Shown here in pieces: positions 1,079-20,369 of a DNA stretch of 22,862 nucleotides. Below the pieces are notes generated by a model, which saw only the letters and a program-made list of their open reading frames with translations, had not been told where the DNA came from and made no database searches. Source of the stretch: Planctomycetota bacterium. GTDB lineage: Bacteria; Planctomycetota; GCA-002687715; DRQF01. The translations under genes were made by a program, and so were the position numbers. The DNA is taken from the NCBI GenBank assembly GCA_036479435.1, contig JAZGFI010000075.1, positions 1-22,862 of the forward strand, in the 5' to 3' direction. Each line of letters begins with the position of its first letter. Position 1 is the stretch's first letter.

Positions 1079-2614
1079 TTGGCCACGAGTTTGACGATCC
1101 AGATTCCTTCACCTTTGCTCCGTTACTCGGAGGGTCAAACGAGTCTGGACGTTGAGGCCCAAACCGTGGGGGCGGCCTTGGATGCGCTGTTTGCGGTCTT
1201 TCCGGGCTTGGCGTCGCGCGTTCTCGACAAAAACGGCAACATCCCACCCTACTTGATCCTGTTACACGCTGGTGAGGTGCTGGCGCGAGACGACTTTCGC
1301 GACCATGTCGTCCAAGCGGGTGATTTACTAGACATCATTCCCGCGGTCGAGGGCGGGAACAGCTCCGGCGACGATGTCCGCATGCGTGGATTCAGAAAAC
1401 GAGCCACCGTCGCCGAGGCCCGCAGCGAAGCGATGGCCGGGCTCAGCTGGCGCAGCGAAACATTGGCTATTGCCGAGGCGGCGGGGCGCGTCCTCGCCTC
1501 GGACGTCGCTTCGCAAATCGACGTGCCAACTTTTGACCGTTCCGCCATGGATGGCTTCGCCCTTTGCGGCGAGGACAGTTTTGGCGCCACGCTCTACGAC
1601 CCGGTTCGTCTCGAACTGGTTGGCGAAGTCATGCCGGGGATGGAGAAACTTCCAAGCCTCGCTCGCGGCCAAGCGCTGCGCATCATGACCGGCGCGCCGA
1701 TCCCTCCCGGCGCCGATGCGGTCTTGATGGCGGAGGACGCCAAAGAAGAACAAGGGGCCGTGTTGGTCCAAGCACCCGTGACACCGGGCAAGAACGTCGG
1801 GCGCCGCGGCGAAGACATCTGTGCGGGCGAAACTTTGCTCAGTGCGGGTCGAAAGTTGCGGCCTCAAGATGTCGGGCTCTTGGCGAGTATCGGAGCGGCC
1901 GTAGTTGAGGTGATTGCGAAACCTCGCGCCGCGATTTTGGTGACGGGCAATGAGCTATTGCCCCCAGGTGAAACGCCGGGGCCTGGCCGAGTGGTCGATA
2001 GCAACACGCCGATGTTGCGGGCATTGATGGAGGCCGATGGCGCTGAAGTCGTCTTGGAGTTTCGCCTTGCTGACGAGCCGGACATCATCGCCCGGGCACT
2101 GGTGCGGAGTGAAGTCGAGATTTTGGTCGCGGCGGGGGGCTCATCGGTCGGTCGCGAAGATTGGCTGCCTGTGTTAACCCGTGAGTACGGCGAGCTGCCG
2201 ATCCACGGCATTGCCATGCGGCCTTCTTCTCCGACCGGTATTGGTCGGGTCGATGACAAAAAGGTGTTCTTGTTGCCGGGAAATCCCGTTTCTTGCCTCG
2301 CCGCCTACGACTTTTTCGCTGGGCCGGCGATTCGCTTTCTCAGTGGCCTTGAACCGGGTTGGCCTTACCCTCGCGAGACCCGTCGCTTGGCGAGGCGGGT
2401 TAGTTCGCAAGTGGGGCGCCTCGACTACCTTCGCGTCAAAATCGAAACCGATGGCCGCGTGGTGCCGCTGGCCTTGTCCGGCGCGGCGATCTTGTCGTCG
2501 ACGACTCGCGCCGACGCCTTCGCAATCATCCCCGCTGATTCCGAAGGCTTCGATGAAGGCAAAGAGATCGAGGTCTTTTTCTACGACCGGCGCCACGTGG
2601 ACGGTCGAGCGTGA
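1079..2614 (+). CDS. moeA: MoaD/ThiS ubiquitin-like sulfur carrier fused N-terminally to gephyrin-like molybdopterin molybdo/tungsto-transferase MoeA
   Basis: GAGGTG RBS before TTG. aa1-93 are beta-grasp-like and end GDLLDIIPAVEGG. MoeA motifs follow: DRSAMDGFA, IMTGAPIPPGADAVLMAED, TGNEL, GGSSVG, LPGNPVS. Confidence 0.93.
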   Translation: MATSLTIQIPSPLLRYSEGQTSLDVEAQTVGAALDALFAVFPGLASRVLDKNGNIPPYLILLHAGEVLARDDFRDHVVQAGDLLDIIPAVEGGNSSGDDVRMRGFRKRATVAEARSEAMAGLSWRSETLAIAEAAGRVLASDVASQIDVPTFDRSAMDGFALCGEDSFGATLYDPVRLELVGEVMPGMEKLPSLARGQALRIMTGAPIPPGADAVLMAEDAKEEQGAVLVQAPVTPGKNVGRRGEDICAGETLLSAGRKLRPQDVGLLASIGAAVVEVIAKPRAAILVTGNELLPPGETPGPGRVVDSNTPMLRALMEADGAEVVLEFRLADEPDIIARALVRSEVEILVAAGGSSVGREDWLPVLTREYGELPIHGIAMRPSSPTGIGRVDDKKVFLLPGNPVSCLAAYDFFAGPAIRFLSGLEPGWPYPRETRRLARRVSSQVGRLDYLRVKIETDGRVVPLALSGAAILSSTTRADAFAIIPADSEGFDEGKEIEVFFYDRRHVDGRA

Positions 2615-4596
2615 AACAGCGTCAGTTCTTAGACGTCGTCACGGACGAAGAGGCGCAGCGCCGCATCGCCGAAGTCTTCCAAGGCATGGTGCCCTGCGGT
2701 GAGATGCTGCCCCTCAACGAGTGCTTGGGCCGCGTCTTATTTGAGGACGTAAGCGCCGCGGTCGATGTCCCGGGTTTTGATCGCGCGGACATGGACGGAT
2801 TTGCCCTGCATGCGGTCGACACTTTCGGAGCCGAAGAACTCGCACCGAAGCGCTTGAAGGTTTCGCGCCATCAGATCGCCGCCGGCTCGGCGGATCTGCC
2901 CGCCGACTTCTCCTTAGAACCGGGTGCAGCGATTTCAATCGCAACTGGTGGCACTTTGCCCCGCGGGGCGAACGCCGTCTTGATGATTGAAGACTCCGCG
3001 CCGGTGGTTGACGGTGACAATAGCGGTGACGAGATCGACGTATTTCATCCGGTCGCCCCCGGAGCGAATCTTACGGGGGCCGGCACTGACGTCGGTCGCG
3101 GCGAGATGATCTTGCGTGCGGGCCAAATCCTTGGGTCTCGTGAGACAGCCCTAGCGGCAGCGGTTGGTGCGCATGAGCTGTGTGCTTTTGCCGCGCCTAA
3201 AGTTGCGATCATCTCGACGGGCGATGAATTGCGCCGCCCCGGAGAAGACTTGGGGCCCGGTGAAATCTACGACTCCAATGGCCGCATCCTCGCCGACGCG
3301 GTACGCGAGATGGGCGGCGAAGCCTGTGAACTCGGCATCGTGCCCGATGACGAGAAGAAGCTCAGCGCTTGTCTAAGGGAAGCCCTCCGAGACTCAGACT
3401 TAATCTTGATGTCGGGTGGGACGTCGAAAGGCGCTGGCGACCTCAACTATCGTGTCGTGCGTGCCTTGGCCCAAGAGCTGCCAAACTCGCGAGGCATTGT
3501 CGTTCACGGCGTCGCCTTAAAGCCCGGCAAGCCTCTTTGTGTCGCCGAAGTCGCCGGCCGTCCGCTGGTGATCTTGCCGGGTTTCCCAACCTCGGCGATC
3601 TTCACTTTCCATGAGTTCGTCTCCTCGCACCTTCGATTTGCCGCTGGCCGCCGCGAGCATTCGGCGGAGTACGTCGAAGCCTACGCGCCGCTGCGCCTGC
3701 CCAGCGCGAAAGGGCGAACGGAGTACATGCTGGTCGATCTCGTGCCCGGCGATCAAGGCTTGGCGGCCTATCCTTTGGGCCGCGGTTCCGGCAGTGTCAG
3801 CACTTTTTCGGCGGCCGATGGTTTCATTCGCATTGATCGTCACACTGAGTTCGTAGCGGAAGGCGAGCGCCTTTTGGTGCGACCCTTGGGCGATCAAGTC
3901 CGGCGACCCGACCTCGTCGCCATCGGTAGTCATTGCCTCGGATTGGACTATTTGTTGAGCGTCTTAAGTCGGCGTGGTTACAGCGTGAAGGCCATCAACG
4001 TTGGGTCTCAGGGCGGACTGAACGCGCTCGCGCGCGGCGAAGGCGACCTCGCAGGAACCCACCTTCTGGATGCGACAACCGGGGAGTACAACCGCTCTTT
4101 TCTTCCCGAGAACACCGAGATCCTAGGAGGATGGCGGCGGCGACAAGGTTTGGTATTTCGCCGCGGCGACGCTCGATTTGAAAGTCTCGCCGCCGACCTA
4201 AGCCGACTCGCCGACCTGGTGCGCGAACCCGGCGTGGTGATGGTGAACCGCAATCCGGGCAGTGGCACTCGCGTGTTGATTGATCGTTTTCTTAGCGCGG
4301 GCGCTGAAACTAAAAGCCCGCCCGAGGGCTTTCACGCCCTAGCCCGCAGCCACCACGCCGTGGCTGCCGCCGTGGTCCAAGGTCGGGCAGACTGGGGCAT
4401 AACGCTCCAATCCTTGGCTCAAGAGCAAGGCCTCGAATTCGTCTTTGTGCAAGACGAGATCTTCGAACTCGCCTTTCCCGCGTCGAGGGCCCAGCGCCCA
4501 GCTATCCTGGCGCTGCGCAAGATCTTGGCCGAATCCGAAGTTCAAGCAAAACTAAAAAACCTGCTATACGGAGTCAGACTAAATTCTCCCGCTTAA
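2611..4596 (+). CDS. moeA: MoeA fused to C-terminal PBP (periplasmic-binding-protein-like) domain
   Basis: GTGA overlap with the upstream gene. MoeA motifs DRADMDGFA, STGDEL, SGGTSKG, HGVALKPGKP, LPGFPTSA. PBP motifs GSHCLGLD, VGSQGGL, GTHLLD, NRNPGSGTR. Paired moeA genes are typical of tungsten-AOR loci. Confidence 0.93.
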   Translation: MKQRQFLDVVTDEEAQRRIAEVFQGMVPCGEMLPLNECLGRVLFEDVSAAVDVPGFDRADMDGFALHAVDTFGAEELAPKRLKVSRHQIAAGSADLPADFSLEPGAAISIATGGTLPRGANAVLMIEDSAPVVDGDNSGDEIDVFHPVAPGANLTGAGTDVGRGEMILRAGQILGSRETALAAAVGAHELCAFAAPKVAIISTGDELRRPGEDLGPGEIYDSNGRILADAVREMGGEACELGIVPDDEKKLSACLREALRDSDLILMSGGTSKGAGDLNYRVVRALAQELPNSRGIVVHGVALKPGKPLCVAEVAGRPLVILPGFPTSAIFTFHEFVSSHLRFAAGRREHSAEYVEAYAPLRLPSAKGRTEYMLVDLVPGDQGLAAYPLGRGSGSVSTFSAADGFIRIDRHTEFVAEGERLLVRPLGDQVRRPDLVAIGSHCLGLDYLLSVLSRRGYSVKAINVGSQGGLNALARGEGDLAGTHLLDATTGEYNRSFLPENTEILGGWRRRQGLVFRRGDARFESLAADLSRLADLVREPGVVMVNRNPGSGTRVLIDRFLSAGAETKSPPEGFHALARSHHAVAAAVVQGRADWGITLQSLAQEQGLEFVFVQDEIFELAFPASRAQRPAILALRKILAESEVQAKLKNLLYGVRLNSPA

Positions 4597-4673: not shown

Positions 4674-5579
4674 CTATCTTCTCCCGCCGTCCAGTTTTCC
4701 GTCTGACAACCCGGCGGCATTGCGGACCAATCGCGCGATCGCCGACAGGTCTTCGTCGCCAAATCCTGCATCGATCAGTTCGTCTTCGCTGGTCGCCATT
4801 TGACTCGCGACGGGAAGTTCCACGCCGGTGTCGGCGGCGGCATCTAACGCGATCCTTAGATCTTTTCGGTGGAGGCTGACTCGAAATCCCAAGGGGTATT
4901 GGTTGTCGATCATGTTGCCGGCGCGTTGCTGGAGTACCCAAGAGGCAGCGGCGCCGCCGCCGATCGCCTCTACGACGCGCTCGGGATCAACTCCTAGCTT
5001 GTGGGCCAAGACCATGCCTTCCGCGACGGCTTGGTAGGTGCCTGAGATGACCACCTGGTTGACGGCCTTGGCGACTTGGCCGGCTCCACTGGGGCCAACG
5101 TGCGTGATCGTTGTGCCGACGGCTTCGAGTACGGGGCGGGCGCGTTCAAAGTCGGTTTCCGAGCCACCGCACATAATGGCGAGCGTGGCGTTCTGAGCAC
5201 CTTCTGAACCGCCAGAGACGGGGGCATCAACGAAGGCGATCTGCCGTTTGGCGCAAGTCGCGGCCAATCTTCGAGTCGCGTCGGGGGCCACCGTCGAGCA
5301 ATCGATGATCAGCCCACCGTCGGCGATCCCCGCTAACAGCCCGCGTTCAGCATCGAGCACGACTTCTTCTAAGTCGGGCGTGTCCGAGACGCAGATCAAA
5401 ACGGCATCGCAGATCTTCGCCAGCTCTTTTGGCGACGCGGCGCGTTTCGCGCCGACAGCGGCCAAGGCCTCTTCTCGCTCGCGGGTTCGGTTGTGAACCA
5501 CCAGGTCAAATCCGGACTTCAACAAGTTGTGGGCCATGGGCGTTCCCATGGTCCCAAGTCCTAAGACGCCAATTTTCAC
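4674..5579 (-). CDS. NAD(P)-dependent beta-hydroxyacid dehydrogenase (3-hydroxyisobutyrate DH / tartronate- or succinic-semialdehyde reductase family)
   Basis: GVLGLGTMG Rossmann motif, DAPVSGG, catalytic-Lys region GAGQVAKAVNQ, and F-x6-KDL. Confidence 0.93.
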   Translation of the reverse strand: MKIGVLGLGTMGTPMAHNLLKSGFDLVVHNRTREREEALAAVGAKRAASPKELAKICDAVLICVSDTPDLEEVVLDAERGLLAGIADGGLIIDCSTVAPDATRRLAATCAKRQIAFVDAPVSGGSEGAQNATLAIMCGGSETDFERARPVLEAVGTTITHVGPSGAGQVAKAVNQVVISGTYQAVAEGMVLAHKLGVDPERVVEAIGGGAAASWVLQQRAGNMIDNQYPLGFRVSLHRKDLRIALDAAADTGVELPVASQMATSEDELIDAGFGDEDLSAIARLVRNAAGLSDGKLDGGRR

Positions 5580-5614: not shown

Positions 5615-6502
5615 TCAGTCCAACTGCGATCGCATTTCCCGCAACTCGCGGCGGCGGTCGTCGCTTACTTGAGGGTACTGAGGGTCGAGGTCCTTTAGGG
5701 CCTCCACGATGATCTTAGCCACTTGCAGTCGCATGAAGGGCTTGTCGTCGGCAGGGATCGCGAACCAAGGCGCATGTTCGCGGGACGTTTGGCCCAAAGC
5801 GTCTTCGTAGGCCCGCATGTAAGCGTTCCAATGCGCGCGTTCTTTGACGTCACTTTCGGAGAACTTCCAGTTTTTGTCGGGTTCATCAATGCGGGACAGA
5901 AAGCGTTGCCGTTGTTCTTCCTTTGAAACATTGAGGAAGAATTTCAAGATGCGCGTGCCGTTTTTCGCCAAGTGTCTTTCGTGATCGCGGATGGACTCGA
6001 ATCGTTGATCCCAAAGATCTTGCCCCAGGTCGAGCCCGGGGATGCGCTGGTACTTCAGGTACTCCGGGTGGACTCGAACCACGAGCACCTCTTCGTAGTA
6101 GCTACGGTTGAAGATCCCGATACGCCCGCGCTCAGGCAGTGACTTTGCCGTGCGCCACAAAAAGTCGTGGTCCAGTTCTTCGGCACTGGGTTGCTTGAAA
6201 GAAAAGACCTGGCAGCCAGCGGGGTTAACCGCACCCAAGACCGCGCGAATCGTGCCGTCTTTTCCGGCGGCATCCATGGCCTGGAATACTAAGAGCAAAG
6301 CATGATCATCGCTGGCATAGAGTTTTCGTTGCAGGCTTCTGATTTCGTCTTGGAGTTTCGCGAGATGTTTTTTGCAGTCCTTTTTGCCCGGTGCGCCCGG
6401 CGGCGGCTCCGTGCTCAATCTCCCAAGATCAAAACGACCCTGGGTGGGCACCAAGTAGGGACTATTCAGTGGAGCCGGCATGGAGCGTTCTGAGTGGGGC
6501 AT
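5615..6502 (-). CDS. ppk2: Polyphosphate kinase 2 family (probably class III polyP:nucleotide phosphotransferase)
   Basis: LLVFQAMDAAGKDGTI Walker A, SFKQPSAEELDHDFLWR, IFNRSYYEEVLVVRVH, KNWKFSESD, APWFAIPADDK. Confidence 0.95.
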   Translation of the reverse strand: MPHSERSMPAPLNSPYLVPTQGRFDLGRLSTEPPPGAPGKKDCKKHLAKLQDEIRSLQRKLYASDDHALLLVFQAMDAAGKDGTIRAVLGAVNPAGCQVFSFKQPSAEELDHDFLWRTAKSLPERGRIGIFNRSYYEEVLVVRVHPEYLKYQRIPGLDLGQDLWDQRFESIRDHERHLAKNGTRILKFFLNVSKEEQRQRFLSRIDEPDKNWKFSESDVKERAHWNAYMRAYEDALGQTSREHAPWFAIPADDKPFMRLQVAKIIVEALKDLDPQYPQVSDDRRRELREMRSQLD

Positions 6503-13371: not shown

Positions 13372-13950
13372 TTAGAGCGAAAGGCTCGGAACGTCCCAGG
13401 TCTCGGGCAGGCAAATGGGAGAGGCGATGACGACACTAATATCGGGCAAGGCGTCAAGAGCGGCCCTAAGGGCCTCGGCGCGGGCCTCATCGAGGTCGGC
13501 CAGGGGCTCGTCCAAGAGCAGTAGTTCCGGTCGCAACACCAATGCCCTAGCCAGGGCGACGCGCCGGATCTCGCCGCCGCTCAGGGTGCGCGACGAGCGC
13601 CTCAACAGATCTTTCAGCTCAAAGCGTTCGACGGCTTCGTCAATTCGCGGCTGACTCTCATTCGCTCGGATGCCGTGAGCCTTCAAACCGTAGCTGAGAT
13701 TGCTGCGCACATCGCCGCGAAACAAAAAGGGGCTTTGGTGAACAAAAACGCGCGCCTTTTGGTGCGCTTCAATCTTGACTTGACCTTGGGAGGGCACATC
13801 GAGTCCCGCCATCACGCGAAGCAGGGTCGACTTCCCCGAGCCGTTTTGGCCACGGATCAAAAAACGCTGGCCCCGCGCCAAAACAAAAGAGTCGAGTTTG
13901 AGAATCTCGTGGCCGTTGCGAGTCAGGCGAAGGCCGGTAATCTCAATCAT
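13372..13950 (-). CDS. tupC: Tungstate ABC transporter ATP-binding subunit
   Basis: True start is probably ATG 13950 (MIEITG, ATGA overlap with tupB) rather than 14157. Motifs GQNGSGKS, VHQSPFLF, LSGGE, LLLDEP. Follows tupA and tupB. Confidence 0.88.
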   Translation of the reverse strand: MIEITGLRLTRNGHEILKLDSFVLARGQRFLIRGQNGSGKSTLLRVMAGLDVPSQGQVKIEAHQKARVFVHQSPFLFRGDVRSNLSYGLKAHGIRANESQPRIDEAVERFELKDLLRRSSRTLSGGEIRRVALARALVLRPELLLLDEPLADLDEARAEALRAALDALPDISVVIASPICLPETWDVPSLSL

Positions 13951-14648
13951 GATTTCGCCTCCCGGTCGCGCTCGAAGGAAAGCAAAACCAAGATGCTGGT
14001 GACGCCGAGGGAAAGCAGCAGCAACAAAAAGCCCATGGCTAGTCCGCGGCTGTACTCGCCGCGGCTTGACTCTAGGACAATCGAACCCGCCAAGGTACGC
14101 GTACGGCCCGCGATGTTGCCGCCGACCATCACCGCCACGCCGAGTTCCGTCATGCAACGCGCCAGCGCGGTCAAGACGCCGAGCAGAATGCCCGTGCGGG
14201 CTTCCGACAAAAGTGTGAGGGCGTGGCGCAACTTCCCCGCCCCCAAAGTGCGCGCGGTTTCTGAGGCGCGGGGATCCAAAGCGGACACCGCCCCTTGGGT
14301 CAGCGAAAAAGTGATCGGAAGGGCGAGCAAGAACTCGCCCAAGATGATCGCCCAGGGGGTGTAGATCAGCTCCAACCCACCCAAGACTCCGCCGCGAGCA
14401 AAAAAGGAATAGCCGAGGATTCCGATAAAGGCGGTGGGGAAGGCCATGCCGGTCCGACCGAGCAAGATCAAAAGGCGGCGACCGACGAAGCGTTTGGTGG
14501 CGACAAATGTCCCCAGCGGAATACCGACCATCGCGGCCAAAAAGACCGCCGACCCGGAAACGAATAGGGTGCGGCCCGCGGCGTTCATGACCACGGGATC
14601 TTGATCGATGAGAAGCCGGAAAGCCTCGCGAATGCCGTCTGCGAACAT
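13947..14648 (-). CDS. tupB: Tungstate ABC transporter permease
   Basis: Hydrophobic protein with ETARTLGA EAA-loop and the TupB-type ELGVAVMVGGNIAGRTRTL motif. Confidence 0.92.
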   Translation of the reverse strand: MFADGIREAFRLLIDQDPVVMNAAGRTLFVSGSAVFLAAMVGIPLGTFVATKRFVGRRLLILLGRTGMAFPTAFIGILGYSFFARGGVLGGLELIYTPWAIILGEFLLALPITFSLTQGAVSALDPRASETARTLGAGKLRHALTLLSEARTGILLGVLTALARCMTELGVAVMVGGNIAGRTRTLAGSIVLESSRGEYSRGLAMGFLLLLLSLGVTSILVLLSFERDREAKS

Positions 14649-15497
14649 CTATCCGGCCTTCGGCGTCAAGGTCTTAAAGACGCGCACGCCGCCGACTTCG
14701 TAGTTGCGGATGATGTCTTGAGCCTCGGGGCCGATAAGGAACTCGGCAAATTTCTCCGCGAGCTTCACTCCTGCGGCGGGGCGACGATCCGGATTCACGC
14801 GAATGACCGAATAGGGATTGATCAGATTGGCACCGCCGGACACCAACTCAACGAGATCGAGGCGGTTTGCCACCCGGGCGAAGGTGCCGCGGTCGATGAG
14901 CAAGTAACACCTCAGTTCGTGCGCCATTTCCGCGGTGGCCCCCATGCCTCGGCCCGATTCGATGTACTCCGACCAAGGGCTGTAACCATCGACGAGCTTC
15001 CAAAGCTGCGCTTCGCGTTTGTGGGTACCACTGTCGTCGCCACGGCTGATAAAACGCGCACCTTGTTGGCAAATGCGGCGCAGGGCGTCCGCGACCTTCA
15101 TGCCTTTGACGCCCGCCGGGTCGTTCTTCGGACCGGCGATGAGGAAATCGCTTTGCATGACGGCCCGGCGCCCAAGGCCATGCCCGGCCGCCACAAAGGC
15201 TTCTTCGGCTTCGCGAGAGTGAGCGAAAACCGCATCAACGTCGCCGTTAGCGCCGAGCTTCAAGGCAGCCCCGGTGCCCACCGCGAGGACGATCACTTCG
15301 CAGGACTCACTTTTTTCAAAGAGGGGGATGAGTTGGTCGGCGATCCCGGAGTCACGCATCGAGGTGGTGATGGCGATGCGCAGGATCTTGTCATCGGCCC
15401 CGTCCTGGCAGCCCCAAAGGCAGCTCAGAACGAGGCCGACAGCGGCAGCAAAGCCTAAATGCCGGATTTCAAAAGCATCTCGTCGAAGGACTTGCAT
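14649..15497 (-). CDS. tupA: Tungstate-binding lipoprotein of ABC transporter
   Basis: Lipobox LWGC; ITTSMRDSG (TTTS-like), AVGTGAAL, FISRGDDSGTHKRE, GRGMGAT, DRGT, NPYSVI. The start overlaps the aor 3' end by 43 nt and is uncertain. Confidence 0.92.
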   Translation of the reverse strand: MQVLRRDAFEIRHLGFAAAVGLVLSCLWGCQDGADDKILRIAITTSMRDSGIADQLIPLFEKSESCEVIVLAVGTGAALKLGANGDVDAVFAHSREAEEAFVAAGHGLGRRAVMQSDFLIAGPKNDPAGVKGMKVADALRRICQQGARFISRGDDSGTHKREAQLWKLVDGYSPWSEYIESGRGMGATAEMAHELRCYLLIDRGTFARVANRLDLVELVSGGANLINPYSVIRVNPDRRPAAGVKLAEKFAEFLIGPEAQDIIRNYEVGGVRVFKTLTPKAG

Positions 15498-18019
15498 ACC
15501 CGTGAGTGCACCTCTTCGAAGAACTCGACCGTGTTGAAGTGTTCAAGATCAACTTTGTCGTACTTGCGGTGAACTTCAAGGGGCATCCGGTAGTCCTCGG
15601 GGCTAAAGCCCTGAGTCCTTTCCAGTTTAAGACCGCGGAGGAAGCAGCGCTTGACCGTCTCGGTGAGCTGCTCTTCGCTGATCTCAAGGCCGGTCATGAG
15701 CTGGATGGCTTCCGCCATCTTCTCGTTGGGCAGGGCCGCAAACTTGCAGATGCCAATGACGTCGTCGCGCATGATCGAACAGCCGCGCTCAGTGATGGCT
15801 TCAACCCAGTAGTCGGCGCCCGCTTCTTTTTCGAAAACGTAGAGCAAATAGGTCTTCATCGACATGTGCCCGCCGGCCAAGGCCCAGGGATAGCCGGGGT
15901 TGAACTGCGGTAAGTAGGCGGGGAACTCGACGCCCTTGCAGTGCATGGCGTAACCGGTTTCACCGAGCGCTTCCGAAAGACGTTTCACGCCCTGGCCGAG
16001 CAACGGGAGTTTGCCCTTGGCCATTTCGGTGATAGCCCGTTGCGCGCCTTCGTAGTTGCCGTACTCGATGTAGTCCGGGATCAAAGACGGCTCGCCCGCC
16101 TCTTTTTTGCGCTTGTTGTACTCCATGGCGTAAGAGATCGTGACGCCGCAAGAGATGGAATCCATGCCGTAGTCGTCGACCATGTCCACCAAGTGAACGG
16201 CTTGATGGATGTCGAAAATCCCGATGTTCGAAGACATCAAGTTCAAGGGCTCAAAATCGAGCTTCGCGTGGAACTTGCCGGGCTTTACTTTGCCCTTGAC
16301 CTCTGTGCGGTCGTAGACGTTTTTGTGACAGGAAATGCCGCAGGCGTAGCAAGCTTCGTCTTTGACCATCAACTCGCCCGCCGCTTCGACGTTGGCGCGG
16401 TACATCGGCACAGAAACATCGGTGCCGGTGGGGTTGAAGTTGTTTTCAGGCATCGCGTGCAGCGGGTTCAAGGCCGTCATGTTGGCCCAAGTGCCGCCGC
16501 CGCCATCGCCTTTTTTTGCGTCGCGAAAGCGCTGGCTTCCGGGCCCGCGCGCGACTTCCATGTTGATCTCTTTGAGGCCCGCGACTTTGACGCCCGGCTT
16601 GGGGTCTTTCATGTCCGCCACGATGGCGAGCAAGTTTTTGGAACCCATCAAACCGCCCATGCCCCCGCGCCCCGCAAAGCGCGACTTCATGTCGCCACTT
16701 TTGAGCTGGTTGAGGGTAGAGAGGCCGATCGCCGCGAAGCGGACTTCTTCGTAGTTCTCGCCGGCGGTGCCAATCGCCGCGAAGTGAGCATCGGGATACT
16801 GGGTGTAGAGGTGTTGGATCTTTTGATTGATCGTCATTCCCTGCAAGTGATGCGCGGGCTTAAACTGGAACGTCGGTTGGCCGTTGGCTTCGTCGTGAGT
16901 GATGTGCAAGTAGACCGGCATGATGGCCTGGCCCGTGAAAATAACTTCCTCCACCCCGAGGTGCCGAAGCTTGGTGCCGAATTTGCCACTGCCGGTCGAC
17001 CACATCGCCGAGGGCTTGTCACTGAGGGAGGCCTTCAGCGGTGAGTAACCGTGGAAGTAGGTGCGTAGGCCGGTCATGAACTGAGTGCCCGACAAAATGC
17101 CGAGGTTCATGATGAGCGGCGCGGCTTTGTCGTAGGGATCTTCAACCTCGTAGTCTTCGAGAATCTTGAATCCGCGGCCGATGCCGCCCAAGACATCTTC
17201 GTAGTCGGCACACTCGACCGTGTCTCGCTTGACGAAATAGGTGCTGAGGTCGATCCGGTACTGTTTGATGCTGAATTCGCGGGGTGACTTGAGATCAGCC
17301 GCCGCGACCGGAGCGGGAGCGGATTTCTTGGCCGGTGCCGCTTCGGATTTCTTAGCAGGTGTGGCGGCGGGCTTTTTCGCCGGAGCTGCCCCCGGCTTAG
17401 CGGCCGGAGTCGTCTCCGGCTTGGCGGCTGGTTTCGCGGTCGCTTTGTTCGGGGCGGGCTTTTTAGGCTCCGGCTTTTTGACTTCAGGTGTTTTGTCGCT
17501 CGGCTTCTCGACGGCCGCCACCGGCTTTGCCGCCGTCGGGGTCTTTGACGTGCGCTTCGTGGTTTTTCGGTCCTCGGAGTCGCCTGTCGCCGTGGCTGGT
17601 TTCTCAGCGGGCTTCTTCTCCGGGTCCGGGGCCTTTTGCGAAATGATCGTCTTCGGCGGTTCTTCGACCGCTGTTGGCATTCGCTCGGCGCTGGTTTTGG
17701 CGACTTTCTTTTTGGCCACCTTCACGACGACTTCGATTTTGGTTCGACCCATCTTGATGACCAAACCGTTCTTCAATGGATGACGATTGCCTTTCCCGAG
17801 AACCGGGCCTCCGACGATGACCGTCTTGTTGGAGCTGCCGACGTCTTCGATTTCAAGGCCACCGCTTCCCTCCAAAATCACGGCGTGGCATCCGGAAACA
17901 TTCTGGTCATTAACGCAGAGTTGGTTGCTGGGGTCGCGCCCGATGGTGGTGCCAGCTTTGATGGCAACGTTGCGGGGGGCTTGATCGGGTTCGTGGAGGC
18001 GAAAGGTGTATTCAGACAT
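15455..18019 (-). CDS. aor: Tungsten-containing aldehyde:ferredoxin oxidoreductase family enzyme with N-terminal FHA domain and Lys/Pro/Ala-rich linker
   Basis: FHA: TIGRDPSNQL..VSGCHA..IEDVGSSNKT. AOR: AGRGGMGGLMGSKNLLAI, PENNF, CYACGISC, DDYGMDSIS (DxxGxD), KGVEFPAY, GGH, DDVIGICKF (fourth Fe-S Cys). Confidence 0.92.
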   Translation of the reverse strand: MSEYTFRLHEPDQAPRNVAIKAGTTIGRDPSNQLCVNDQNVSGCHAVILEGSGGLEIEDVGSSNKTVIVGGPVLGKGNRHPLKNGLVIKMGRTKIEVVVKVAKKKVAKTSAERMPTAVEEPPKTIISQKAPDPEKKPAEKPATATGDSEDRKTTKRTSKTPTAAKPVAAVEKPSDKTPEVKKPEPKKPAPNKATAKPAAKPETTPAAKPGAAPAKKPAATPAKKSEAAPAKKSAPAPVAAADLKSPREFSIKQYRIDLSTYFVKRDTVECADYEDVLGGIGRGFKILEDYEVEDPYDKAAPLIMNLGILSGTQFMTGLRTYFHGYSPLKASLSDKPSAMWSTGSGKFGTKLRHLGVEEVIFTGQAIMPVYLHITHDEANGQPTFQFKPAHHLQGMTINQKIQHLYTQYPDAHFAAIGTAGENYEEVRFAAIGLSTLNQLKSGDMKSRFAGRGGMGGLMGSKNLLAIVADMKDPKPGVKVAGLKEINMEVARGPGSQRFRDAKKGDGGGGTWANMTALNPLHAMPENNFNPTGTDVSVPMYRANVEAAGELMVKDEACYACGISCHKNVYDRTEVKGKVKPGKFHAKLDFEPLNLMSSNIGIFDIHQAVHLVDMVDDYGMDSISCGVTISYAMEYNKRKKEAGEPSLIPDYIEYGNYEGAQRAITEMAKGKLPLLGQGVKRLSEALGETGYAMHCKGVEFPAYLPQFNPGYPWALAGGHMSMKTYLLYVFEKEAGADYWVEAITERGCSIMRDDVIGICKFAALPNEKMAEAIQLMTGLEISEEQLTETVKRCFLRGLKLERTQGFSPEDYRMPLEVHRKYDKVDLEHFNTVEFFEEVHSRVCKSFDEMLLKSGI
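17290..17720 (-). repeat. Low-complexity PAKK/PAAK-type peptide repeats in the FHA-AOR linker (approximate bounds)
   Basis: KPAAKPETTPAAKPGAAPAKKPAATPAKKSEAAPAKKSAPAP. Confidence 0.85.
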
Positions 18020-18072
18020 CAAAAGTCTCTATCGCTCGGGGTGCGTGCCGGGTTGGATCTGAGGTTGAGGCG

Positions 18073-18109
18073 AAAAACGGCGGCCCCATATCGAAGGGTG
18101 CCGCCGTTT
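18073..18109 (-). terminator. Intrinsic-terminator-like hairpin between the ThDP enzyme gene and aor
   Basis: Minus strand AAACGGCGGC-A-CCC-TTCGATAT-GGG-GCCGCCGTTTTT, starting 5 nt after the stop codon. Confidence 0.6.
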
Positions 18110-18114
18110 GAGAT

Positions 18115-19764
18115 TCAAAGAGTGCAGGTAATGGAGCCGAGGCGAGCCGTCAGCTTCATGTTTTCGCTGTAGTCGATCGGGATCGAGATGATCGCCGGCC
18201 CCTCTTGCTGGAAGGCCTCTTCGAGGGCGGGCAGCAGGTCTTTGGATTTGGTGACATGCTTGCCCCAAGCGCCAAAGCTCTCCGCCAACTTCACGAAGTC
18301 GGGGTTGGTGAAAGCCAGGTCGGAGTGCTTGCCAAAGCTCGCCTGCTGCTTCCATTTGATCAGGCCGTACTCGCAGTCTTCCCAGATCAGCTGGACGATG
18401 TTGAGTTTGCGGCGCACCGCGGTCTCAAGGTCTTGGATGTTCATCATCGTACCGGCATCACCACCCACAGCGAGGATGCGGCGATCGGGAAAGACCAACT
18501 TCGCGCCCATTGCGCCTGGGAAGGCGAAACCCATCGTGCAAAAGCCGTTCGAGATCAGGCAAGTGTTGGGCTCGTCGCACTGGTAGTAGCGGCCGATCCA
18601 CATCTTGTGGGCTCCGACGTCGCTCAAAATGATGTCGTTTGGTCCCAAGACCTGACGGCAATCCCAGAGTGCTTTTTGGGGAGTGATCAAGCCGTCGGTG
18701 TCGGCGTCGGCATGTTCGGCGAAGTCGGCGAGCATTTCCTTGCGCAACTTGGCGTGCACGTTGATGTCGAACAGGGGCTTGTCGGGCATACCCTTGTTGA
18801 GTTCGTAGATCGAATCCGCGATGTCGGCGACCAATTCGACATCCGGGTGATAGAGGCTCTCCACTTCGGACTCTTCGAAGTCAATGTGGATGATCTTCTT
18901 GTCGCGCCCGGTGTTCCAAAACTGCGGGTGGTACTCGACGAGGTCGTAGCCAATGGCAATAACCAAGTCGGCTTTTTCCATTTCGCAAGAAACAAGGTCG
19001 CGAGCCTGTAGGCCCATCGTGAATAAACAGTGCTTGTCATCTCGCGCAATCGCGCCCTTGCCCATGAAGGTGCTGACGACACCGATACCAGATTTCTCGG
19101 CGAAGATCCGAAGCTGCTTTGTGGAGCGCTTGCGAATCGAGCCGTTGCCCGCGAGGATCAAAGGGTGCTTGGCATTTTTGATCAGCTCGAGCGCTTGCTT
19201 GACCGCTTTGTGGTCGGCGCCGGGGCGGCGAACCTTGCGCGGCTCCATCGGGACCAAGTCATCCTTCACTTGCGAGTCGGCAAGGTCTTCGGGAAGCTCG
19301 ATGTGCGTGGCCCCCGGTTTTTCGGCGGTAGCGACTTTGAAAGCCTTGCGCACCACTTCCGGAATGTTCTCCGGTTGGCGAACACTGAAGTTCCACTTGG
19401 TGATCGGCCGGAACATCTCAATGCAGTCCATGTTCTGATGCGATTCCTTGTGCAGTCGATGGGTGTCGGCTTGTCCGGTGAGGACGACCATGGGCGCGCG
19501 GTCCATGTTGCCGTCGGCAACGCCCGTCACCAAGTTGGTGGCGCCTGGCCCGAGTGTCGCCAAGCAAACGCCGGGCTTGCCCGTCAAACGCCCGTAGACG
19601 TCGGCCATAAACGCGGCGGCTTGTTCGTGGCGGCAGAGAACGAAGTCGATGTCCGATTCCATCAAGGAAATCATCACATCGGCGTTCTCTTCACCCGGGA
19701 TGCCAAAGATGTACTCGACCCCTTCGGTCTCTAAGCACTTAACGAACAGATCTGATGCCTTCAT
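18115..19764 (-). CDS. ThDP-dependent enzyme, acetolactate-synthase-large-subunit-like; resembles the cyanobacterial 2-oxoglutarate decarboxylase subfamily
   Basis: FGIPGEEN, RHEQAAAFMADVYGRLTGK, TLGPGATN, ESHQ, TFMGKG, SDVGAHKMW, NTCLISNGF, ThDP motif GDAG..., DYSEN. GAGAGG RBS. No ALS small-subunit gene is adjacent. Confidence 0.92.
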   Translation of the reverse strand: MKASDLFVKCLETEGVEYIFGIPGEENADVMISLMESDIDFVLCRHEQAAAFMADVYGRLTGKPGVCLATLGPGATNLVTGVADGNMDRAPMVVLTGQADTHRLHKESHQNMDCIEMFRPITKWNFSVRQPENIPEVVRKAFKVATAEKPGATHIELPEDLADSQVKDDLVPMEPRKVRRPGADHKAVKQALELIKNAKHPLILAGNGSIRKRSTKQLRIFAEKSGIGVVSTFMGKGAIARDDKHCLFTMGLQARDLVSCEMEKADLVIAIGYDLVEYHPQFWNTGRDKKIIHIDFEESEVESLYHPDVELVADIADSIYELNKGMPDKPLFDINVHAKLRKEMLADFAEHADADTDGLITPQKALWDCRQVLGPNDIILSDVGAHKMWIGRYYQCDEPNTCLISNGFCTMGFAFPGAMGAKLVFPDRRILAVGGDAGTMMNIQDLETAVRRKLNIVQLIWEDCEYGLIKWKQQASFGKHSDLAFTNPDFVKLAESFGAWGKHVTKSKDLLPALEEAFQQEGPAIISIPIDYSENMKLTARLGSITCTL

Positions 19765-19925: not shown

Positions 19926-20369
19926 TTGCAGGATCGCGAACTCGTTCTTTTTGAGTCCTTCGCATGGCGACAGCTCGAGGCCATGGCCCTGGATTCTTGG
20001 CCCCAAGAGGCAAGCGGATGGCTCATTGGTCCCCGCTCCCAGAACGCCTTTGAACGGATCACGCGCCTTGATTGCGCTGAATCGAGCGATGCCCGCTCCG
20101 ACTTCTTCGTCCTCAACCCCGTCCACTACGCCCGGGCCCAATTCGACGCGCGCCGCCAGGGGCAGGACATTTTGGGAATCTTTCATTCACACCCGAACGG
20201 CGCCGCCCACCCTTCGGCCACCGACCTAAGCTGGTCCCGCTCAATGTTCGGCCGCGACCGCGGCTGGCTAGAAATCATTGCCGCTGTGAATGAACATCGC
20301 CGCCTCGACCTCAGCTGTTGGCGCCTCGACGACGGCGTCTACCGCCAATGCAACTTCCGAGTTTCCTAA
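19926..20369 (+). CDS. JAMM/MPN+ (Mov34/JAB, M67) metallopeptidase
   Basis: PQEASGWLIG (catalytic Glu) and GIFHSHPNGAAHPSATD (HxH-x7-S-x2-D). GGGAGAG lies before the TTG start. Confidence 0.9.
   Translation: MQDRELVLFESFAWRQLEAMALDSWPQEASGWLIGPRSQNAFERITRLDCAESSDARSDFFVLNPVHYARAQFDARRQGQDILGIFHSHPNGAAHPSATDLSWSRSMFGRDRGWLEIIAAVNEHRRLDLSCWRLDDGVYRQCNFRVS

Follow-up and report, generated by a model that had tools for sequence, protein, structure and literature searches.

An FHA domain fused to a predicted tungsten aldehyde:ferredoxin oxidoreductase in a family of uncultured Planctomycetota: a conserved gene that may link aldehyde oxidation to Ser/Thr kinase signaling

The window analyzed here is a stretch of 22,862 nucleotides (nt) from contig JAZGFI010000075.1 of an uncultured member of the Planctomycetota (assembly GCA_036479435.1). 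It encodes an 854-amino-acid (aa) protein, P0001, in which an FHA domain is joined through a long linker to an aldehyde:ferredoxin oxidoreductase (AOR). Sequence comparisons indicate that the FHA-linker-AOR gene is real, is coded as one chain, and is conserved. With moderate confidence, we propose that P0001 is a Class I type tungsten AOR that is tethered by its FHA domain, coupled to the kinase network of the cell, and used to oxidize an aldehyde derived from an acetolactate synthase (ALS)-like enzyme encoded next to it.

An earlier note on this DNA had described the FHA domain, linker, and AOR as parts of a continuous open reading frame, and they indeed lie in a single 854-aa frame. Each of the three Pfam domains scores above its cutoff: FHA (PF00498) at aa 24-91 (E = 4.8e-13, 49.8 bits versus 20.7), AFOR_N (PF02730) at aa 254-469 (E = 6.2e-37, 127.7 bits versus 29.8), and AFOR_C (PF01314) at aa 508-817 (E = 1.6e-41, 143.2 bits versus 27). 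The coordinates given for the gene earlier were correct, but the strand had been left out; the gene is on the minus strand and reads from right to left, with the FHA domain at its high-coordinate end. The reading frame is listed at 15455 to 18022 (855 aa from a TTG), and the adjoining codon is an ATG at 18019. The parts of the gene are as follows.

15455 to 18019, minus strand: FHA-linker-AOR gene encoding the 854-aa P0001 (coding sequence 15458-18019, stop codon 15455-15457)
17720 to 18019, minus strand: FHA domain, aa 1-100 (Pfam match aa 24-91, nt 17747-17950)
17936-17938, 17894-17896, 17885-17887, and 17828-17830, minus strand: codons of the FHA residues R28, S42, H45, and N64, respectively
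17276 to 17719, minus strand: low-complexity Ala/Pro/Lys/Thr linker, aa 101-248
17693 to 17695, minus strand: codon of T109, an aligned Thr in 13 of 13 fused sequences and a candidate phospho-acceptor
15458 to 17275, minus strand: AOR (WorL) catalytic part, aa 249-854 (AFOR_N 254-469, AFOR_C 508-817)
16328-16351 and 15746-15748, minus strand: codons of the AOR Cys ligands C557/C560/C564 and C758, respectively

The earlier note had raised three ways in which the fusion might dissolve: a misassembly or a stop codon in the linker, a fusion found only once, and an AOR translated from an internal start. None of these was seen. Single Logan contigs from runs X1, X2, and X3, which belong to three studies, span positions 15300 to 18200 with 0 differences and 0 gaps, and no joint falls in the linker. 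X3 is independent; the window DNA may itself stem from X1 and X2. Run X6 covers this region only piecewise, and a small unrelated X2 contig gave a joint within the AOR part. A protein identical to P0001 is on record from four contigs, and the same architecture recurs in eight other protein clusters and in other genomes of the family. In-frame ATG, GTG, or TTG codons after the FHA domain occur at aa 99, 101, 114, and 167, none of them preceded by a Shine-Dalgarno-like sequence, and the next is found only at aa 277. The stretch from aa 168 to 276 thus offers no in-frame start, and a stand-alone AOR beginning at about the domain boundary is not encoded. An Rfam scan of the window returned 0 matches, and a promoter and terminator scan of the window gave results at chance level.

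The distribution of the fused form was followed at the level of both proteins and genomes. Among the 120 best relatives listed, grouped in clusters at 90% identity, nine proteins including the query combine FHA, AFOR_N, and AFOR_C (773 to 1056 aa), and a new Pfam scan found the FHA domain in all eight fused relatives. Whole-genome searches found the gene in 9/9 genomes of the window's family, which span five genera, and in 0/14 genomes of the order's three other families; these 23 genomes make up the class. The frame is uninterrupted in seven of the nine family genomes (795 to 1056 aa), and the copy in genome G004 is truncated by a contig end past the FHA domain and the start of the linker. 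When all 120 proteins were placed on a tree by their AOR columns, the fused forms fell into one clade of 12 rows (SH-aLRT 99): the nine fused proteins together with P0010 (whose called start lies inside the FHA domain), P0011, and P0012. The simplest reading of this tree is one fusion event in the family ancestor. Of 203 relatives in a species-genome collection, the best 80 loci include seven that are fused, all of them from Planctomycetota. Around the 73 unfused loci, an FHA profile searched out to 7 kb gave only three weak matches, all in Actinomycetota. This AOR clade belongs mainly to Planctomycetota, and most of its proteins are unfused and ∼600 to 640 aa long.

A second N-terminal addition was observed in the same AOR clade. 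Proteins P0028, P0036, P0042, P0059, and P0098 (∼800 aa) carry a ∼120-aa helical domain that matches nothing in Pfam and precedes an Ala/Pro/Lys linker. They group in a clade by themselves (SH-aLRT 100). A search of the ESM Atlas with the N-terminal domain of this type gave no usable match. Tethered N-terminal modules have thus been acquired at least twice in this AOR. Apparent N-terminal extensions at loci L047, L050, L052, and others were rejected as tblastn artifacts across frames.

The FHA domain of P0001 has the residues expected of a phosphothreonine reader. In FHA structures, the Arg of the GR motif, the Ser and His of SxxH, and an Asn contact the phosphate and the backbone of the peptide. 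The earlier note had listed these motifs, and G27-R28, S42-x-x-H45, and N64 are all present in P0001. They are invariant, along with D59, G61, and S62, in the 10 fused FHA domains, which are 39 to 53% identical to that of the window. For the closest pair of genomes, G001 and G002, the ratio of nonsynonymous to synonymous substitution rates (dN/dS) was 0.108 for the FHA domain, 0.193 for the linker, and 0.038 for the AOR part; two other pairs were saturated at synonymous sites. As judged from these comparisons, the FHA domain is under purifying selection and retains the canonical phosphothreonine-binding residues. In 10/10 fused sequences the domain opens the protein, leaving no N-terminal tail, so any acceptor Thr lies C-terminal to it. 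Searches of P0001 with Pfam and an FHA profile gave one match only and no second FHA domain.

The nearest relatives of this FHA domain are the N-terminal FHA domains of two-FHA proteins. One of these is encoded in the same genome (G000:C185:21878-23725, locus L117/L002); its 616 aa comprise an FHA domain, a Lys/Ala-rich histone-H1-like linker, a second FHA domain, and a hydrophobic C-terminal stretch. It matches P0001 through the linker as well (33% over residues 5-240), which points to the transfer of a copied FHA-plus-linker module to the AOR. This protein is the closest FHA-plus-linker relative in the genome and a likely donor of the module. Apart from the query itself, a word search with the FHA domain alone retrieved a single FHA protein, of 499 aa, and the best 150 matches by summed score of an FHA profile against 1.8 billion representatives were mostly multi-FHA proteins.

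The linker, put at about 145 Lys/Pro/Ala/Thr residues by the earlier note, counts 148 residues in the window protein, of which 78% are Ala, Pro, Lys, Thr, or Glu and 15 are Thr, with a net charge of +17. Its length ranges from 65 to 355 aa among relatives and its net charge from +17 to −14. This variation argues against a conserved role in nucleic acid binding, and the idea that the Lys-rich linker binds DNA was rejected on this ground. Thr makes up 4.2 to 12.8% of the linkers versus 3.7 to 5.0% of the AOR parts, so that the description of the linker as Thr rich holds for most members, if not for all. T109, the sole invariant linker residue, lies ∼10 residues past the last FHA strand; an equivalent Thr is common, though not fixed, in the wider FHA subfamily. 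Two linker motifs, KTEPQPIHPYG and LPEIP, are common to genera g3 and g5 and absent from the window's protein.

The catalytic part is complete, as the earlier note had stated from its four Fe-S cysteines and pterin motifs. Its best solved relative is the Pyrococcus furiosus AOR (PfAOR, PDB 1aor; phmmer E = 1.5e-28, 103 bits; profile E = 8.5e-42). C557, C560, C564, and C758 are invariant in 120/120 aligned relatives. The first three align with the CxxCxxxC motif of PfAOR, and C758, in a DDxxGxC motif, is presumably the fourth ligand of the [4Fe-4S] cluster. The same invariance holds for GRGG at 450-453, for D615 and D620, for D752-D753-x-x-G756-x-C758, and for T510, E590, and Y702, which align with T243, E313, and Y427 of PfAOR. 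These three and H448 are described as pterin or active-site residues of PfAOR in PMC13328260. H718 of P0001 is also invariant and lies just beyond the aligned stretch; it is probably the equivalent of H448. No NCBIfam equivalog reached its cutoff against the AOR part, which places it in an uncharacterized clade.

P0001 is the only AOR in its genome, and no gene for a WorS/polyferredoxin, Fe-S, or FAD subunit was found in the scanned reading frames of the window or in the neighborhoods of four relatives. A 2026 classification divides the tungstoenzymes of this family (WOR) into five classes by subunit make-up and electron carrier; in Class I, WorL acts alone with ferredoxin as acceptor, and a ThiS-like gene is often near (PMC13328260). 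By its gene content, the P0001 AOR fits Class I. P0001 resembles PfAOR and the Class I enzymes in its AFOR_N and AFOR_C domains, in its CxxCxxxC...C ligands and equivalents of T243, E313, and Y427, in the absence of an adjacent WorS-type gene, and in the ThiS-like and putative tungstate-uptake genes near it. It differs from PfAOR in being a distant relative with an N-terminal FHA domain on a 148-aa tether, from a clade linked to an AlsS-like gene. TupABC-like genes and two MoeA genes near the fused gene would fit the use of tungsten by P0001.

The neighbors of the fused gene that bear on its function are as follows.

18115 to 19764, minus strand: catabolic-type ALS-like thiamine pyrophosphate enzyme, 549 aa, 95 nt upstream of the fused gene
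14649 to 15497, minus strand: TupA-like tungstate-binding protein (listed start overlaps the AOR 3' end; start uncertain)
13372 to 14648, minus strand: TupB-like permease (13947-14648) and ABC ATPase (13372-14157, start uncertain), from profile matches
19926 to 20369, plus strand: Prok-JAB protein, divergent from the ALS-like gene
1079 to 2614, plus strand: ThiS/MoaD-like::MoeA, itself a fusion
2611 to 4596, plus strand: MoeA::PBP_like (periplasmic-binding-protein-like domain), itself a fusion
4674 to 5579, minus strand: HIBADH-family beta-hydroxyacid dehydrogenase, recurring in 5/6 family loci

The product of the ALS-like gene passes NF006187 (755 bits versus a cutoff of 509), and its best solved relatives are catabolic ALS enzymes, including that of Bacillus subtilis (4rjj, 2e-110). 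It thus resembles AlsS, from which it differs in being paired with an AOR rather than with acetolactate decarboxylase. The gene lies directly upstream of the fused gene in 6/6 family loci, with 74 to 84% identity between the proteins, and upstream in 6/7 fused loci of the species-genome collection. It also adjoins the unfused AOR in 14/73 other loci, often with a ThiS-like gene between the two; the pair is thus older than the fusion. These unfused pairs, at loci L029-L032, L035, L040, L042, L044, L047, L049, L050, L052, L075, and L079, are from Planctomycetota. From this gene order, the pair looks like an undescribed module that would convert a 2-oxo acid to an aldehyde and the aldehyde to an acid.

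The Tup-like gene block is directly downstream of the fused gene, and both MoeA-type genes are near the fused gene in relatives too. The Prok-JAB gene is found likewise at loci L018 and L020, and its product probably processes a MoaD/ThiS-like protein; it could act on the ThiS-like C terminus. A PPK2 polyphosphate kinase is encoded in the window as well (5615-6502, minus strand). PPK2 homologs (28 to 30% identity) were seen 5 to 7 kb from unfused AOR genes at L073, L080, L083, L087, L090, L094, and L100, and their recurrence in these seven actinobacterial-type or unclassified loci may be chance. A reading in which the AOR is targeted to an encapsulin or other compartment was rejected: no shell gene was seen in the window, and PMC8346489 cites AOR in its reference list alone.

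This organism has about 50 genes for Ser/Thr kinases. Its genome gives 56 Pkinase matches, none of them on the window's contig, and 25 FHA matches. Of the 22 other FHA-bearing frames in the genome, 20 were scanned for domains, and these encode kinases, sigma-54 activators with GAF domains, a cyclase, a SpoIIE phosphatase, a protease, CAP-domain proteins, FHA-only proteins, and one FHA-multiheme cytochrome. Among the FHA-bearing frames scanned, no soluble metabolic enzyme other than the AOR was seen. The cytochrome (G000:C195:43766-45742, locus L121; 659 aa) has an N-terminal FHA domain followed by multiheme cytochrome c domains (Cytochrome_C7, MtrC/MtrF-like, with paired CXXCH motifs) and is a second fusion of FHA to a redox protein in this organism.

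Taken together with the gene order, the domain content would fit the following scheme. P0001 would be a catalytically competent, single-subunit tungsten AOR whose FHA domain sits on a long, presumably disordered tether. The AlsS-like enzyme would act as a decarboxylase and convert a 2-oxo acid to an aldehyde, which the AOR would oxidize to the acid while reducing ferredoxin. PfAOR is most active on aldehydes that arise from 2-ketoacid decarboxylation, according to PMC13328260. The FHA domain would recognize a phosphothreonine placed by one among the cell's numerous Ser/Thr kinases, either on a putative partner phosphoprotein or on the linker of a neighboring AOR molecule, where T109 is the candidate. 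These two targets are equally possible. Kinase firing would then lead to recruitment, clustering, or switching of the AOR.

The position of T109 bears on how such binding might occur. The FHA fold places its C terminus on the side opposite the binding loops, and T109 is very near that C terminus; binding between molecules is therefore judged likelier than a GarA-like closure of the molecule on itself. TIFA, which has an FHA domain and a nearby phosphothreonine, assembles head to tail. By analogy, intermolecular binding of the TIFA or Rv1747 type, rather than self-binding, is suggested for T109. In Rv1747, phosphorylation-dependent contacts between FHA and linker drive clustering (PMC9312465). 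Rv1747 and P0001 share an FHA domain followed by a Thr-bearing linker, presumably disordered in P0001 too, that is joined to a working protein. The Rv1747 module, however, consists of FHA-1, a disordered phospho-linker, and FHA-2 on a mycobacterial ABC transporter, while P0001 has one FHA domain and a soluble redox cargo. In GarA and OdhI, actinobacterial regulators of TCA-cycle enzymes, an FHA domain serves the control of central metabolic enzymes by Ser/Thr kinases, with an acceptor Thr close by, and the earlier note had compared the P0001 linker with these proteins. The comparison proved loose: GarA and OdhI are small and free-standing, with the acceptor in an N-terminal tail, whereas the FHA domain of P0001 is fused to an enzyme, lacks such a tail, and has its candidate Thr on the C-terminal side. 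P0001 scored 20.6 bits against the OdhI/GarA equivalog NF041660, well short of the cutoff of 200.

Several observations weigh against this scheme. Neither the window nor the scanned neighborhoods of four relatives yielded a kinase or phosphatase gene. The AOR parts of the fused clade have three clade-specific columns, none of them Ser or Thr, and the ALS-like proteins of the fused family have no clade-specific Ser/Thr signature. Two linkers contain 4.2% and 5.4% Thr, versus 3.7 to 5.0% in the AOR parts. P0012 (631 aa, starting at the end of the linker) is in the fused clade without an FHA domain, through either loss of the domain or a miscalled start. In the G005 copy (locus L008/L012, G005:C20), a frame change within a (PA)n repeat splits the linker and parts the FHA domain from the AOR; this could be a sequencing error in the repeat or a real recent split. 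The AOR annotated in that genome, P0011, begins at an internal Met; in P0002, which is closely related, the fusion is intact. At fused locus L025, the 7 kb upstream contain no ALS-like gene. Finally, the best and only match of the TupA-like protein, NF041772, reached 182 bits versus a cutoff of 400.

Other explanations of the fusion were weighed against the same evidence. The FHA domain might be a phosphorylation-independent docking or oligomerization module on a swinging arm, for example one that holds the AOR at the AlsS-like enzyme or at a membrane complex and passes aldehyde or electrons. The tight linkage of the ALS-like gene and the reach of a long, variable linker would suit such a role. 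GarA-type FHA proteins control enzymes through direct binding (PMC12321487), and unphosphorylated Rv1747 1-310 phase-separates too, at higher concentration (PMC9312465). We nevertheless consider this explanation unlikely, since R28, S42, H45, and N64, which a phosphorylation-independent contact would not need, are all invariant among domains of 39 to 53% identity. Moreover, the unfused AOR has the same ALS-like neighbor without any FHA domain, and the ALS-like proteins of the fused family carry no covarying signature.

A more specific form of AOR-AOR binding would have phosphorylated T109, perhaps with other linker Thr residues, bound head to tail by the FHA domain of another AOR molecule. The resulting condensate or metabolon, possibly including the AlsS-like enzyme, would confine the reactive aldehyde and the oxygen-sensitive cofactor. 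This form, built on the analogies above, seems doubtful to us as a specific claim.

It is quite improbable that the fusion is functionally idle, with an ordinary AOR released by an internal start or by proteolysis and the FHA-linker part left as the relic of a fusion accident. The unfused majority of the AOR clade, P0012, and the G005 frame break could be read in this way. Against it, the dN/dS values of the FHA domain (0.108) and linker (0.193) speak for selection on both, the FHA binding residues are invariant over five genera, and frames remain open through linkers of 65 to 355 codons in seven genomes. The AOR boundary also has no start codon near it, and the four earlier candidates lack a Shine-Dalgarno-like sequence. 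An assembly or binning artifact, such as a chimeric contig or a stop codon missed in the low-complexity stretch, can be set aside almost entirely: GC-rich repeats of low complexity are error prone, as the (PA)n break in G005 may illustrate, but contigs of three studies cross the region without a difference, the identical protein is known from four contigs, and the same join occurs in seven other species-level genomes. The kinase-coupled, FHA-tethered AOR thus remains the interpretation that we prefer.

We found no paper describing an FHA-AOR fusion in a literature search that included Planctomycetes and the ALS context, and no report of post-translational, signal-dependent control of AOR-family tungstoenzymes. 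The classification of WOR enzymes in PMC13328260 includes no FHA-type domain in its main text, where "FHA," "forkhead," and "Planctomyc" occur 0 times, and its supplementary tables (two files) gave no match for the fusion. The sequences themselves are already known, and public annotation labels the relatives "FHA domain-containing protein" or "aldehyde:ferredoxin oxidoreductase"; the reading of the fusion as a kinase-linked AOR is new.

As these organisms are uncultured, the value of the finding lies in a testable hypothesis rather than in a demonstrated mechanism, and a 100-residue FHA domain and a single invariant Thr provide experimental handles on it. The linkage of an ALS-like gene to both fused and unfused forms is a rare clue to the substrate route of an uncharacterized AOR clade; if true, this route would be a CoA-independent oxidative decarboxylation of a 2-oxo acid. 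Self-clustering, if true, would be the first phospho-regulated assembly of a tungstoenzyme. More broadly, the conserved FHA fusion in uncultured marine Planctomycetota is a natural experiment that points to the placement or switching of an AOR by kinase signaling.

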